From NCBI GenBank assembly GCA_045606825.1, contig JAZUSQ010000021.1:86706-150705 (forward strand): a stretch of DNA of 64,000 nt, in the 5' to 3' direction. This DNA is from Elusimicrobiaceae bacterium (GTDB lineage Bacteria > Elusimicrobiota > Elusimicrobia > Elusimicrobiales > Elusimicrobiaceae). Positions 1-41,038 of the stretch are shown one piece after another (position 1 is the first letter of the stretch; each line of letters opens with the position of its first letter). The position numbers and the translations under genes are program-made. The notes beneath the pieces are model-generated. The model was not told where the DNA came from and did no database searches. It was given only the letters and a program-made list of their open reading frames with translations.

Positions 1-1511
1 CCCAAGGAATATAACGTGGCTTTTAGTTTTTCAGGTGCAATTTTAGGGCCCACCACAAATAAATTACCGTCCGCCGTTTTTAACAAAACCGCATTTTTGT
101 GCCATTCATCCAGCACATATATGTGCGTACCACGGTAGTAAAAGGCTTGCAGGGCCAGTGCCCCTACACTCACTAGCACCACCGGAATTACCCATTTTTT
201 GGCCAACCCTTTTAGGGGTATATTGAATAGCCAAAACAGGGCTGTATAATAAGCCACCAAACTGCCGGGTTTCCACGCCGTTACGGCAATGGACGATATA
301 GCAAACGAGGCAAAAAATTCTACAATCCACTTAAAAAGCAGTAACCCCGCATAAAGCGGGTAAAATACCACTTGCCCGGCATGCACCCAGGACAATGCGT
401 AATAAGCCGCGCTGAGCCCCAGCAACACCGAGGCCAATGGCACTAACAACATATTGGCCACCAGCCCCGTTAAAGAAACTTTATAAAATACATTGGTAAA
501 CACCGGTAGTAGCACCAGTTGCACGCAAAGCGTGGCCAAAAAGATTTGTGCAAAAAAGCGCACCAGCCGCGGCCAACGCATAGGAACCGGATAATTATTC
601 AAACAAATAATCAATGCCGCCGTAGCCAAGAAAGACATTTGAAACCCTGTTTCAAATAAACTGGCCGGGTTGATTAGTAAAATTATAAAACATGAAACCA
701 AAAGCCCTTGAAATACACCACTATTACGCCCCAAGTAATACCCGGTACACGCACACACTGCCATAAAATACGCCCGCACCAGCGGGGCATCCGCCCCTGC
801 CATAAGCGTGTATATCCCGGCCACCAGTAATGCCGCTACCAACGCCTTTTTACGCCGGATACGAAAAAGCCCGCACAGGGCCAACGTCATGAGGGTAACA
901 AAGCCCACGTTCCCGCCGGAGGCCACCAGCAAATGAATGGCCCCGCTATCTTGAAACGCCGTGTAAAGGGCCGGGTCTAAATCGCCGCGTTCCCCCAGCA
1001 AAATGCCGCCGGCTATGTGGGCTAAATCCGGCGGAAAACTGCGCTCAAATAAATGCAATATATCGGCCCGCACATCACGCAATACACGCCAAAACCAAGC
1101 GGCCGGTTTTAACACACGCGCACGCGAACTTTTTATTTCTGTAAAGATATGTTTGTAAGCCAAAAACTGACGCCAGTTAAAATTGCCGGGCAGGTTGGTA
1201 CTAAAGGGTTTTTGCAAGCGGCCGGAGATTTCCAGTTCGTCTTTCCAGGCAGGTTCAATGTCTGTCAAACGCGCGTACACATAGCCTGTGGCCGGTGCCC
1301 CATTTACAGTAGAAACTTTTACAATCACGTTGTTGGAAGTTGGCTTTTGGGTGTAGAAATTTTCCACCCGCCCGGTAAGTGTTACCTCTTTTTGCGGCAA
1401 GAAATGATAGACATCCGTTTCTGTAGGTACCGGCTTGTACCCTATACAAAGCCCGCCAATAAGCAACATGAGGGCTATTAAAAGCGGGCGTTTATAAATA
1501 TCCGGGTGCAT
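1..1511 (-). CDS. comEC: ComEC/Rec2 competence protein (runs off the window edge, 3' partial)
   Basis: Manual translation from ATG at 1511 (MHPDIYKRPLLIALMLL...) contains GILLGERGDLDPALYTAFQDSGAIHLLVASGGNVGF, the ComEC competence-domain signature. The frame is still open at position 1. Not in the ORF track. Confidence 0.85.
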   Translation of the reverse strand, partial: MHPDIYKRPLLIALMLLIGGLCIGYKPVPTETDVYHFLPQKEVTLTGRVENFYTQKPTSNNVIVKVSTVNGAPATGYVYARLTDIEPAWKDELEISGRLQKPFSTNLPGNFNWRQFLAYKHIFTEIKSSRARVLKPAAWFWRVLRDVRADILHLFERSFPPDLAHIAGGILLGERGDLDPALYTAFQDSGAIHLLVASGGNVGFVTLMTLALCGLFRIRRKKALVAALLVAGIYTLMAGADAPLVRAYFMAVCACTGYYLGRNSGVFQGLLVSCFIILLINPASLFETGFQMSFLATAALIICLNNYPVPMRWPRLVRFFAQIFLATLCVQLVLLPVFTNVFYKVSLTGLVANMLLVPLASVLLGLSAAYYALSWVHAGQVVFYPLYAGLLLFKWIVEFFASFAISSIAVTAWKPGSLVAYYTALFWLFNIPLKGLAKKWVIPVVLVSVGALALQAFYYRGTHIYVLDEWHKNAVLLKTADGNLFVVGPKIAPEKLKATLYSL

Positions 1512-17598: not shown

Positions 17599-18849
17599 TT
17601 ACTCTTTGTCGTCTTCAATCATACGGCGGAAGGTTTCGTCGTGCGCGGAACTGTCTGTACTGGCAAATGCGGCCTGTGTTTCTGCACTGCCAGACGGATT
17701 TTGCACCGGTTTATTAACAGAGATATGTGCATATAATTTGCGGATAGACGGATAGATTTTTTTAAATGCCGCCACAATACGCGGGTCAAACGATTTACCC
17801 GATTCACTTAAAATATATTCATACGCTTCATCTGTCTTCCACGCGTTTTTATATACGCGGAACTGGCACAGGGCATCAAATACATCCGCCACCGTAATAA
17901 TGCGCGCTTCCAGGGGGATATCTTCCCCTTTTAAGCCATTGGGGTACCCGGCTCCGTTCCATTTTTCGTGATGATACAGACTCATTTTGTGGGCAATTTT
18001 AAGCACTTTTGAGTGTGCCCCTTCCAAAATGCGCCCGCCATAAACGGTGTGCGATTTCATGATTTCAAATTCTTCCGTGGTTAATTTACCCGGCTTTAAC
18101 AAAATGTTATCAGCCAGGGCTACTTTGCCAATATCATGCAAGGGACTGGCGTTTTTAATCAGTTCAGAGTCTTTTGTGCCCATTCCCAATGCACGGGCCA
18201 GCAAATATGAAATGATACTAATGTTCTTTAAGTGGGAACGGGTATCTTGCTGGTCGCGGTACTCGGCCGTAACGGCCAGGCGGTAAATGGTTTCTAATTG
18301 GGCTACGCGCACATCCTGGTAAAGTTTGGCAATTTCAATAGAACTGCCTGCCAGCGTGGCCAAAAGTGTTAGAATACCTTCGTCATTTTTATCAAAGGGG
18401 GTCCCGTCTGCCTTGTTGGCTGTTTGAAATACGCCCACCACTTTGCCTGAATTATTTTTAAGCGGAACGGCCAACATGGTATGTGTGCGGAAATCCGTTA
18501 CCATGTCCACATCCATGGAAAAGCGCGGGTCCTCGTAAGCATTAGGCAGATTGATAATTTCCCCGGTACGCGCCACAATGGAAATGGCATTGTTGCCATC
18601 TAGCGGGACACGGATTTCTGTATGTTCCAAACCGCGCCCTTGGGCTATTTTAGACCATAATTCATTTTTTTCTACGTCTTTTAAATAAATCGTACAACGG
18701 CCCACATCTAGCAAGGCCGTAATTTGCTGGGCGATAATGTCTAAGAGTTTATCCAGGCGGATTTCGCCGGACACACGGGACCCGAACTCCACCAACAGGT
18801 TAAGTTTCTGTTCGGCAGTTAGTTTACTCCCCGGAAAAATATATTGCAT
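17599..18849 (-). CDS. GAF + HD-GYP domain protein (cyclic dinucleotide phosphodiesterase family)
   Basis: GAF region with NKADGTPFDKND; LHDIGK and HHEKWNGAGYP motifs. Confidence 0.9.
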   Translation of the reverse strand: MQYIFPGSKLTAEQKLNLLVEFGSRVSGEIRLDKLLDIIAQQITALLDVGRCTIYLKDVEKNELWSKIAQGRGLEHTEIRVPLDGNNAISIVARTGEIINLPNAYEDPRFSMDVDMVTDFRTHTMLAVPLKNNSGKVVGVFQTANKADGTPFDKNDEGILTLLATLAGSSIEIAKLYQDVRVAQLETIYRLAVTAEYRDQQDTRSHLKNISIISYLLARALGMGTKDSELIKNASPLHDIGKVALADNILLKPGKLTTEEFEIMKSHTVYGGRILEGAHSKVLKIAHKMSLYHHEKWNGAGYPNGLKGEDIPLEARIITVADVFDALCQFRVYKNAWKTDEAYEYILSESGKSFDPRIVAAFKKIYPSIRKLYAHISVNKPVQNPSGSAETQAAFASTDSSAHDETFRRMIEDDKE

Positions 18850-39295: not shown

Positions 39296-39364
39296 AGGTA
39301 TATTGTACCTAATATGAGAAACCAGGGATAGGAATTATCTTGGTTCTTAAGTAAGAGCAAAAAT

Positions 39365-40024
39365 CTACGGGTAAATATACCAGGTTCCGTAGGCATTTGA
39401 AAAATCGGCCTGCGTTTTGAGGGTTTCACGTTGGCAGAACTTTACTGCTGCATTTGTCTTTGCCCCACAAACTTGTTTACCTGCAAATGAACGGAATTGA
39501 GAATACGTATTATCTTGTAAAAGCCAACTTTGAAGTGATGCAGATAGGTCAGAAATAAAAAGAATAATACGCGGAGCTGCATCAAATTGCCGGTCAATAA
39601 GAGAAATTTCTCCCCAATCAAACTGATATGTTCGGTGGCCGTTGCCTAAACTTGTTACTTGAATGGGTGTTTCTGAGAAATCAACATTTAAGTTGTTAAT
39701 ATCGGGAGTATATTCTCCATTCTCTAAGTAATAGAGTTCTTCGGCTCTTGCTAACGCTACTGCTAACATTTTATAACGGCTGTATTTGCTTTTTTCTACG
39801 GCTCGTTGGTACTGCGGTACGGCTACGGCGGCTAATATGCCAATAATGAGTACCACTACTAAGAGTTCAATGAGCGTAAAACCCATTAAATTAGGTGTCA
39901 TCCCGTACTTGATACGGGATCTTCCACGCACGTTGTTAACAAACAGCAACGACAAGCGTTGAAGATTCCAAATCAAGTTTGGAATGACTTTATTATTTTT
40001 CACATGTTTTTTTCCTTTCTTCAT
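39365..40024 (-). CDS. Type IV pilin (PilE-like) #7, with extended leader peptide
   Basis: MKKGKKHV...VIPNLIWNL...[19 protein letters not shown]; ATG 40024 follows AGGAG. Confidence 0.92.
   Translation of the reverse strand: MKKGKKHVKNNKVIPNLIWNLQRLSLLFVNNVRGRSRIKYGMTPNLMGFTLIELLVVVLIIGILAAVAVPQYQRAVEKSKYSRYKMLAVALARAEELYYLENGEYTPDINNLNVDFSETPIQVTSLGNGHRTYQFDWGEISLIDRQFDAAPRIILFISDLSASLQSWLLQDNTYSQFRSFAGKQVCGAKTNAAVKFCQRETLKTQADFSNAYGTWYIYP
39897..39988. repeat. Inverted REP doublet (REPIN-like), in frame in the pilin #7 leader peptide
   Basis: GTCATCCCGTACTTGATACGGGATCT (39897-39922) and AGATTCCAAATCAAGTTTGGAATGAC (39963-39988). Confidence 0.8.
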
Positions 40025-40055
40025 ACATAACTCCTTGCTTTGTAATTTACCCAAC

Positions 40056-40218
40056 AAAAAAGCGGCAATCTTATTCTAAGAGCTGTTAGAGATGACCCTT
40101 AAAATAACCGCCGCTGACCTACCTCTTACGAGGCAGGCAAAGCAAGACAATTATTTGATGATCTCTAACATGCGCACCAGGTTTCCCCGGTTTTGCTCGG
40201 CGCGGGCTTCCCCCGCAC
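40056..40218 (-). ncRNA. Candidate GEMM-I-like (cyclic dinucleotide) riboswitch with intrinsic terminator, upstream of pilin #7
   Basis: GAGCAAAACC-GGG-GAAA-CCT-GGTGCGCA resembles the GEMM-I P1 arm. The long stem TGTTAGAGAT/ATCTCTAACA competes with the terminator AGCGGCGGTTATTTTAAG...CTTAGAATAAGATTGCCGCT-TTTTT. Confidence 0.4.
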
Positions 40219-40357
40219 TTCAACAAATAATCTGTAAATAAAACCGCAACCCTTTACTGGGCTTAAATCATTATATAAAAATAAATAGACTCCCTCACAA
40301 TTTTATATACTATTAGTAGCTTTTTATTTTCCCCATTTACAGGAGCCCAACCGCACT

Positions 40358-41038
40358 ATGGATTGGAGTATTGTAGTAAACTCGTTTATCGGTATTATTG
40401 CCATTTTAAACCCGATCGGCAACGTGCCGATTTTTTTGGAACACGTAGAAAATGAAACACCCAAAGTCCAGCGTGCCGTGGCCTTGCTTATGGCTGGGTC
40501 CATTTTTGGGCTATTGCTGGTCTTCTTTTTATTTGGTAACCGCATTTTAACCATGTTTGGTATCACTATCCCGGCGTTTAGATTGGCCGGGTCTATTATC
40601 ATTTTGCGGGTAGGGTTGCGTATGTTACAAGGGAAAAGCAAATTTGAAAACAGCGGTATCCAAACGGCCGCCTCTTCCGGCACTACCTTTGACCAGGCCA
40701 GGAGCAGTTTAAGCCATATTTTAGTGCCGGTGGCTATGCCGCTTTTTATCGGCCCCGGTTCTATTACCACTGTTATTTTGTATGCCGAGAAAAGCACCAC
40801 CTGGACCATGACCATGAGTATGATTTTTGTACTGTTGGTTAGCGCGTGTGTGGTAGGCATTTGTTTGGTAGGGGCGCGTTATATTTTTAGCAAAATTGGG
40901 CCTAACGGAACCCAAATTGTCATCCGTTTTATGGGGATGATTTTGTGTGCGATTGCCATGCAATTTATGATTGACGGCATTGCCCAATTATTGCCTGGCA
41001 CGTTGAATGCGGATTTCATCCACGTGCATACAAATTAG
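40358..41038 (+). CDS. MarC family integral membrane protein
   Basis: LNPIGNVPIF, FGITIPAFRLAG, PLFIGPGSIT. Confidence 0.92.
   Translation: MDWSIVVNSFIGIIAILNPIGNVPIFLEHVENETPKVQRAVALLMAGSIFGLLLVFFLFGNRILTMFGITIPAFRLAGSIIILRVGLRMLQGKSKFENSGIQTAASSGTTFDQARSSLSHILVPVAMPLFIGPGSITTVILYAEKSTTWTMTMSMIFVLLVSACVVGICLVGARYIFSKIGPNGTQIVIRFMGMILCAIAMQFMIDGIAQLLPGTLNADFIHVHTN

Follow-up and report, generated by a model that had tools for sequence, protein, structure and literature searches.

Is a structured, terminator-bearing leader in front of a pilin-like gene a GEMM-I riboswitch, or is it a regulator of another kind? The question is raised by pilin #7, a gene on the minus strand of a 64,000-nucleotide (nt) stretch of DNA from an Elusimicrobiaceae bacterium (GCA_045606825.1, contig JAZUSQ010000021.1, positions 86,706 to 150,705 of the forward strand), hereafter the window, which is part of a 1.56-Mb genome. 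The leader studied here occupies 40234-40054 (minus strand; coordinates are those of the window, and all leader features lie on that strand). An earlier reading of the same DNA, referred to below as the original prediction, took the leader for one half of a GEMM-I-like aptamer combined with a competing terminator. The analysis that follows argues for a different answer: the leader is probably a member (class II) of an undescribed superfamily of ~180-210-nt 5' leaders present in Elusimicrobium-like gut and rumen bacteria, predicted to act by premature termination of transcription on pilin-like genes and on some genes for other surface proteins. No counterpart of this family was found in Rfam 15 or in full-text literature searches.

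Four strands and two competing folds

The pairing statistics given below refer to 80 class II leaders aligned to a model that contains the helices P2, HV (hypervariable helix), antiterminator and P4; P1, P3 and the terminator were absent from the model used to fit the alignment. In the architecture that covariation supports, four strands of related sequence compete with one another, and the window copy has all four of them (with the P1, antiterminator and terminator pairings) together with the HV helix. Strand a (GATTATTTG-T-TGA, 40220-40232) consists of GATTATTTG (40232-40224) and an extension, TGA (40222-40220); it is the 5' strand of P1, and thus the anti-antiterminator strand, and its partners are 40157-40149 and 40161-40159. 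Both lie in switch strand a' (TCA-T-CAAATAATT-GTC, 40146-40161, with CAAATAATT at 40157-40149), which pairs either with strand a or with strand a2. In the former case a and the TCA-T-CAAATAATT portion of a' form P1, closing a junction that holds the hairpins P2 and P3; in the latter case a' and a2 (GGCGGTTATTTT) form an antiterminator. Strand a2 has a further partner, a2' (AATAAGATTGCCGC): together they make a GC-based stem that, with the T run behind it, is the terminator. Strand a2 is the 5' half of the terminator (AGCGGCGGTTATTTTAAG, 40098-40115), a2' the 3' half (CTTAGAATAAGATTGCCGCT, 40080-40061), and the T run (40061-40056) completes an element that extends over 40056-40080; the lower helix of the terminator is paired in 91% of cases. 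A GC-rich stem (40115-40098 / 40080-40061) with a T run that ends at 40056, all upstream of the start codon, is what an intrinsic terminator looks like, and in the alignment the T-run columns are 94-100% conserved and the base of the stem is GC-rich.

The remaining helices complete the two folds. P2 (GTGCGGG-GGAAG-CCCGCGC, 40200-40218) is paired in 99.5% of cells, with compensatory changes in six of seven pairs; its five-base loop reads G-N-R-A-G in most copies and the final G is present in 100%. P3 (CCGGG-GAAA-CCTGG, 40177-40190) has a stem that covaries in all five pairs. P4 (GCCTGCCTC-GTAA-GAGGTAGGT, 40117-40138), the tip of the antiterminator, is 97% paired and shows compensatory changes in 10 of 10 pairs. 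The 5' arm of HV (TGTTAGAGAT, 40161-40170) pairs with a 3' arm (ATCTCTAACA, 40093-40084) located inside the terminator loop. HV joins the stretch just 5' of a' to the terminator loop, and lengthens the antiterminator to a near-continuous helix of ~25 bp. Because its 3' arm is within that loop, the 10-bp stem and the terminator are mutually exclusive in a nested fold. The competition between these two structures was part of the original prediction and is borne out: both exist, both are conserved in the 80 leaders, and both covary. Their positions, too, had been given correctly; what had been overlooked is the 5' strand GATTATTTG (40232-40224), the third partner of the switch, which lies outside the interval then described.

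If selection maintains two exclusive folds, then positions used in both are expected to covary with each of their alternative partners. Two columns illustrate the point. Column 97, in switch strand a', pairs with column 4 (AU in 67 leaders, GC in 12) and with column 156 (UA 45, UG 23, CG 11); column 153, in strand a2, pairs with column 100 (UA 37, CG 19, UG 17) and with column 212 (AU 41, GC 27, GU 9). That each covaries with both partners supports selection on two mutually exclusive folds. For the alignment as a whole, the antiterminator fold leaves 97.4% of cells paired (against 34-47% when partners are slid by one to three columns), with double changes in 30 of 41 pairs; the alternative fold, made up of P1, P3 and the terminator and with HV entered as a pseudoknot, leaves 93.2% paired, with double changes in 40 of 61. 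P1 by itself is 96% paired and shows changes on both sides in six of its ten pairs. HV is hypervariable in sequence, and its conservation is one of pairing: the eight aligned core pairs that vary are standard pairs in 80/80 leaders, between 8 and 50 sequences per pair are altered on both sides, and 43 distinct arms occur among the 80 leaders.

The same helices emerge from analyses of other kinds. A blind mutual-information scan recovers HV, P2, P3, P4, one P1 pair and pairs of the terminator; RNAalifold, unaided, returns the antiterminator with compensatory changes in 32 of 38 pairs; and a MAFFT alignment of the nine copies in the genome agrees with the picture obtained from the 80 leaders. 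The minimum free energy of the leader region is -76.2 kcal/mol, compared to -52.7 +/- 4.1 kcal/mol for shuffled sequences (z = -5.8; none of 200 shuffles was as good). G-U pairs are frequent – columns 5-96 are UG in 25 sequences, columns 150-215 GU in 37 – and this identifies the folded strand as the pilin-sense strand. The leader combines the features that mark class II as a family: two covarying folds, a gene-specific long-range helix, and a site preceded by a (putative) promoter and followed by the gene of a pilin-like or other surface protein.

Energy balance and a proposed order of events

Folding energies suggest how the choice between the folds might be made. P1 would form first, and the 5' arm of HV would be left single-stranded: in nascent RNA up to a' the pair probability of P1 is 0.89, and the HV 5' arm is unpaired with a probability of 0.82-0.83. 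Once a2 and the HV 3' arm have been made, the two HV arms would dock as a toehold and a2 would displace a from a'. In RNA cut before a2' the antiterminator beats P1 by 9.7 +/- 4.5 kcal/mol, and does so in 79/80 leaders; displacement would normally be complete before a2' emerges, and the result would be read-through. Anything that locks the P1-P2-P3 junction, on the other hand, would leave a2 free to form the terminator, turning the gene off. At full length the two states are close to balanced, P1 plus terminator and antiterminator differing by 0.6 +/- 5.1 kcal/mol across the 80 leaders (-72.3 and -72.4 kcal/mol for the window copy).

A class II leader among many of class I

A DNA search of the bacterium's own genome gave two partial matches, which lie just 5' of pilin-like genes, and profile searches extended these to nine full copies. 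All eight for which a downstream gene is present on the contig end 20-50 nt before a pilin-like open reading frame (ORF); the ninth is at a contig end. Weaker profile matches proved to be leaders of another class, class I, that precede other pilin genes, including the window's other nine. Class I accounts for 140 profile matches in the genome, and the 174 pilin-like N-termini (F-T/S-L-I/V-E-L-L) of this genome (G000) include 127 behind class I leaders and eight behind class II leaders.

Scores against the class II model separate the two classes by a clear gap: class II leaders score 71-184 bits, class I leaders 27-50 bits over the full length. Bit scores are relied on here because the E-values come from a short calibration and are rough. 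The claim that the leader of pilin #7 differs from those of the window's nine other pilin genes therefore holds (at least 71 against at most 50 bits); judged by its sequence, it is different from, yet related to, the common class I leader.

The relationship is visible at several levels. Both classes share the order of parts: 5' strand, P2, P3, variable-helix arm, switch strand, hairpin, terminator 5' half, variable-helix arm, terminator 3' half and T run. Blocks of sequence are shared as well: the first strand is followed by TTGGAA, and GGGTTA ... GCT flanks the 3' variable arm. Both classes stand before pilin-like genes, and promoter modules have been exchanged between them. The switch strands, in contrast, differ as a set: GATTATTTG / CAAATAATCG / CGGTTATTG in class II, CTGTTTTTGG / CCAAAAACAGCCG / CGGCTGTT in class I. 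Class II is ~30 nt shorter and has no equivalent of the extra hairpin that class I carries between the switch strand and P4 (followed in class I by a GAnTGTTT box), and its P2 loop, a G-N-R-A-G pentaloop, is unlike that of class I. It is also ~15 times rarer than class I in the genome, and is found in only half of the genus.

Two further observations concern the leaders of both classes. Two promoter modules, TTATTATACTATAGGTACAATTT and TTGAAA-N17-TAnAAT followed by ..GTAGTTAAAA, serve either leader class. In class I (window 8343-60923 and genome-wide) the loop of the extra hairpin is often a palindrome – TTCGAA, TAATTA, TTGCAA, GGCC or GTAC – and could kiss the loop of another copy.

No support for a GEMM-I riboswitch

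The original prediction rested on a string of the leader, GAGCAAAACCGGGGAAACCTGGTGCGCA (40198-40171), in which a GNRA tetraloop hairpin and flanking bases recall GEMM-I. The strings it quoted are all present on the minus strand, at the places given for them. Its proposal amounts to homology: 40198-40171 would be half an aptamer, and c-di-GMP (cyclic di-GMP) or 3',3'-cGAMP (cyclic GMP-AMP) would choose between the 10-bp stem and the terminator. The attractions of the idea are plain. GEMM-I riboswitches often precede pilus genes; class II, like GEMM-I and GEMM-Ib, lies 5' of a pilus gene and has an intrinsic terminator for its expression platform; the leader contains the string GCAAAACC..GAAA..GG..CGCA; and the cell carries three GGDEF genes and a GAF-HD_5 protein. 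The last of these is the protein noted in the window by the original prediction (ORF 17602-18849, minus strand, with GAF and HD_5 domains). Cyclic di-GMP may therefore exist in the cell; nothing ties it to the class II leader.

Covariance models give the proposal no encouragement. A scan of the window with 4227 Rfam families (cmscan, gathering scores) found only tRNAs, and neither c-di-GMP-I nor c-di-GMP-II. Within 39900-40400, at E<=10, there was no match to c-di-GMP-I, c-di-GMP-II or any riboswitch; RF01051 (whose gathering score is 35 bits) and RF01786 likewise had no match at E<=1 in 20 class II leaders from other genomes or in the whole 1.56-Mb genome. A search with RF01051 at a relaxed threshold was the check put forward with the original prediction, and a lack of model similarity, which it named as counting against the idea, is what was found. 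T-box leaders (RF00230) gave no match either, and, the window's tRNAs apart, no Rfam match beyond chance was obtained in the window, in 39900-40400 or in the 20 other leaders. A hit to Acido-Lenti-1 (plus strand, 40118-40151) scores 21.6 bits against a gathering score of 37; it falls on P4 read on the opposite strand and is probably due to chance.

The detailed likeness dissolves on comparison with related copies. In GEMM-I a conserved GNRA tetraloop docks into a receptor on another helix. The only GAAA loop here is that of P3 (40185-40182), and neither it nor its flanks are kept even in the nearest orthologues: the P3 loops of the closest read AA, ACA, AAA, TTTT and AA, and loop length varies across the 80 leaders. 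The supposed GNRA hairpin is thus a variable, freely covarying stem with variable loops. The original prediction had conceded that a canonical GCAAAG junction and a tetraloop receptor were not clearly present, and in this it was right: the leader has no conserved element of either sort. Its argument from a single base does not survive. In the Vc2 riboswitch the junction nucleotides that contact the ligand are G20, A47 and C92, and G20 is changed to A in cGAMP binders; with no alignment to the GEMM-I family, positions equivalent to these cannot be named in class II, and the claim that the equivalent of G20 reads A has no basis. Class II differs from GEMM-I and GEMM-Ib, moreover, in having a three-way junction with a hypervariable strand. 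We regard homology to GEMM-I as very improbable and the similarity (GCAAAACC .. GAAA .. CGCA) as a chance resemblance. For annotation the case carries a warning: a structured leader with a terminator in front of a pilus gene does not by itself make a GEMM riboswitch.

Distribution, downstream genes and mobility as a cassette

Of the 96 genomes of the genus, 48 carry class II leaders, counted as matches of class II strength (E<=1e-12); each has 1 to 14, and the total is about 140. Such leaders are also found in three other genera of the family – g19, g14 and g13, in 20/34, 2/5 and 1/1 genomes – and none was found in 16 genomes from two other families of the order.

Pilin-like N-termini follow 58 of the 80 leaders; for 14 more the flanking DNA is too short to tell. 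The other eight comprise one leader without a called ORF and seven that stand before non-pilin genes (in L020, L054, L055, L008, L057, L009 and L010, at ~1500-1690 in each, downstream of the leader). The products of these genes are of several kinds: an outer-membrane-protein (OMP)-like beta-barrel, a Pmp-like repeat protein, small BNR/Asp-box-like proteins, an ankyrin-repeat protein, a zinc-ribbon membrane protein and a protein of unknown kind. A single non-pilin gene in L100 is preceded by a tandem of class II leaders (806-997 and 1041-1231, minus strand; G157:C6 36305-36730); they lie 43 nt apart, each with its own terminator, and the variable helix of the second is degraded.

Comparison with close relatives shows the extent of the unit. 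The nearest named relatives are uncultured Elusimicrobium sp. metagenome-assembled genomes (MAGs) from rumen and gut (UvrB 92% identical). In one of them, RUG486, the gap between marC and uvrB is 92 nt (L110 1388-1479) and contains neither leader nor cassette; the window flanks homologous to that site are 40357 and 39316. Since the site is empty in RUG486, the promoter, the class II leader and pilin #7 (39317-40356, minus strand, between marC and uvrB) constitute one unit. The model found no class II leader beside uvrB in eight related MAGs named Elusimicrobium.

What might operate the switch

Given two folds, what decides between them? We rank an RNA-binding protein first among the candidate triggers, a small ligand second and factor-free kinetics third. 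Conservation is informative here. Apart from the T run, the only unpaired bases conserved in at least 90% of the 80 leaders are G33, G44, T110, T174 and T190, and nearly all conservation of the leader is accounted for by the double use of the switch strands. So few conserved unpaired positions argue against a small-molecule pocket, without excluding one (and they leave a GEMM-type junction equally little room). A protein or other macromolecule that stabilises the P1 junction is the trigger we favour, though at somewhat less than even chances.

Several mechanisms were considered, and most of them set aside. Leader-peptide attenuation of the trp or his type finds no conserved ORF: 16 of the 80 leaders lack any ATG, and no alignment column has an ATG in the majority. 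A pseudoknot between the purine-rich loop of P2 and the T-rich linker after the switch strand shows no covariation between its two sides. A trans-acting RNA bearing the switch strands is not indicated: extra matches in the genome are few, lie in unrelated places and show no sign of an RNA gene. CsrA came into consideration because GGA occurs in many P2 loops and within the conserved TTGGAAG; the genome, 93% complete, yielded no CsrA gene. Nor was a second NusG (a LoaP- or RfaH-type paralogue) found, the genome having a single NusG. A search of the genome for ANTAR domains gave no match, but its controls were equally silent, so that it says little about such a protein; leaders controlled by ANTAR proteins use two small hexaloop hairpins as antiterminator, whereas that of class II is a single long helix with a tetraloop hairpin at its tip.

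The next candidate is a riboswitch of a new class with no relation to GEMM. Its small-molecule ligand, either a metabolite or a second messenger (c-di-GMP, for example), would be bound by the P1-P2-P3 junction, to which HV might be docked as a fourth helix; binding would lock P1 and so cause termination. The architecture is that of an OFF transcriptional riboswitch with P1 as anti-antiterminator; a regulon of surface and secreted proteins (pilin-like, OMP-like, Pmp-like, BNR-like) would suit a lifestyle signal; and there are near-invariant positions outside the pairings, namely the G that ends the P2 loop (100%) and G44 between P2 and P3 (94%). Such positions are very few, however. P3 is connected to P1 by the hypervariable HV arm, which leaves no fixed junction sequence on that side, the P2 loops of class I leaders are quite different, and ~150 aptamers per cell would make a large sink for any ligand. 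We consider this possibility, ligand included, unlikely, though a serious contender. The switch might also need no factor at all. Toehold strand displacement would then race the synthesis of a2', and the leader would sense polymerase speed, pausing, nucleoside triphosphates or temperature – or might merely give every pilin gene a fixed, low and noisy output. That the full-length folds are isoenergetic, that the competing helices alone explain almost all conservation, and that the searches for CsrA, a second NusG and a trans-acting RNA produced no effector all agree with such a scheme. Yet the antiterminator is favoured by ~10 kcal/mol at the decision point and has a free toehold of 9-10 nt: without a factor the terminator would seldom win, and its retention in hundreds of copies would be hard to explain. 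A factor-free switch is, in our estimation, doubtful.

A more sceptical account denies regulation altogether: the leader might hitch-hike in a duplicating pilin cassette as a 5' stabiliser and leaky insulating terminator, its copies being kept alike by recent duplication or gene conversion. Leader and gene do travel as one cassette, absent from the marC-uvrB site of RUG486, and paralogous copies are numerous. The copies nevertheless differ at most stem positions while both folds still pair, with three-way compensation at the switch positions; the leader also precedes unrelated genes, and it is retained in at least four genera. As a whole this account strikes us as improbable.

Some points weigh against the attenuator that we favour. 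The searches just described (CsrA, second NusG and trans-acting RNA; ANTAR with silent controls) yielded no candidate effector. The window copy belonged to the seed of the model, and its score of 138 bits is therefore high by construction. Covariation counts overstate the number of independent events, because the copies within a genome are paralogues and those in different genomes are kin. Finally, pseudoknots are outside the energy model: HV might form an H-type pseudoknot alongside P1 and the terminator, and were it to persist in that form the kinetic account given above would change.

Relation to known attenuators and wider meaning

Three-helix attenuators are known from the PyrR-controlled pyr leaders of Bacillus subtilis and from the platforms of OFF-type transcriptional riboswitches. 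Class II follows the logic of those systems: one antiterminator strand is held in an early helix (here P1), the terminator can form when that helix is stabilised, and the scheme needs no leader peptide. Class II departs from them in lacking both the PyrR-type binding loop and pyr genes, in the ~150 leader copies per genome in place of a few, and in the long gene-specific helix that extends the antiterminator and adjoins the switch strand like a toehold. What the present analysis adds is the class II variant itself, its spread, its non-pilin targets, the covariation of switch positions with both alternative partners, the balance of folding energies and the proposal of a toehold.

A bolder synthesis can be entertained, if only speculatively. 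Classes I and II might be two specificity classes of one new ribo-regulator that, in a 1.5-Mb genome, ties ~150 separately transcribed surface-protein genes to one or two signals, for example a second messenger such as c-di-GMP or an RNA-binding protein that reports on pilus assembly; the gene-specific toehold helix of each leader would drive antitermination by strand displacement, and class II would be the minimal switch core with a different effector. Taken together these propositions are unlikely to hold in full. The attenuator model asks for less. Should it hold, about a tenth of the gene complement of these small bacteria of gut and rumen would be gated, each gene by its own copy of a bistable leader: with ~170 pilin-like surface proteins in the gated group, this regulon would rank among the largest of the cis-RNA type in any genome. 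Class II in any case indicates which parts are indispensable (four competing strands, P2, P3, P4 and the gene-specific helix) and that one class I hairpin is not, and it demonstrates that all the switch strands can change their sequence together while the logic is retained. As a compact RNA of 180 nt it is suited both to the study of toehold-type strand displacement in a natural attenuator and to the search for its effector.

The pilin #7 locus

The 5' neighbour of pilin #7 is the divergent gene marC (40358-41038, plus strand). A putative promoter for the leader consists of TTGTGA (40300-40295) and TATAAT (40275-40270); an alternative -10 box, TATATA (40277-40272), would give a 17-nt spacer. 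In most other class II leaders CTTGAAAA-N17-TAnAAT is found ~26 nt 5' of the first switch strand. Between the putative -10 box and that strand the window copy has a small 5' hairpin, AGCCCAGTAAAGGGTT, followed by GCGGTTTTATTT (40248-40263), an arrangement confined to its own class II subgroup (orthologues L077, L085 and L089).

Downstream of the leader there is a ribosome-binding site (AAGGAG, 40036-40031), and pilin #7 itself begins 32 nt past the T run, extending from the ATG at 40024 to 39365 (stop included, minus strand), with the Pfam N_methyl motif at residues 48-68. The motif GFTLIELL is preceded by an N-terminal extension of 47 residues (..VIPNLIWNLQRLSLLFVNNVRGRSRIKYGMTP..; 39880-40024, minus strand). 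Similar extensions occur in other pilin genes of the genome, where the corresponding DNA forms palindromes, ATTCCAAACTTGATTTGGAAT and TCCCGTATCAAGTACGGGA: the extension may be an inserted repeat that is translated in frame.

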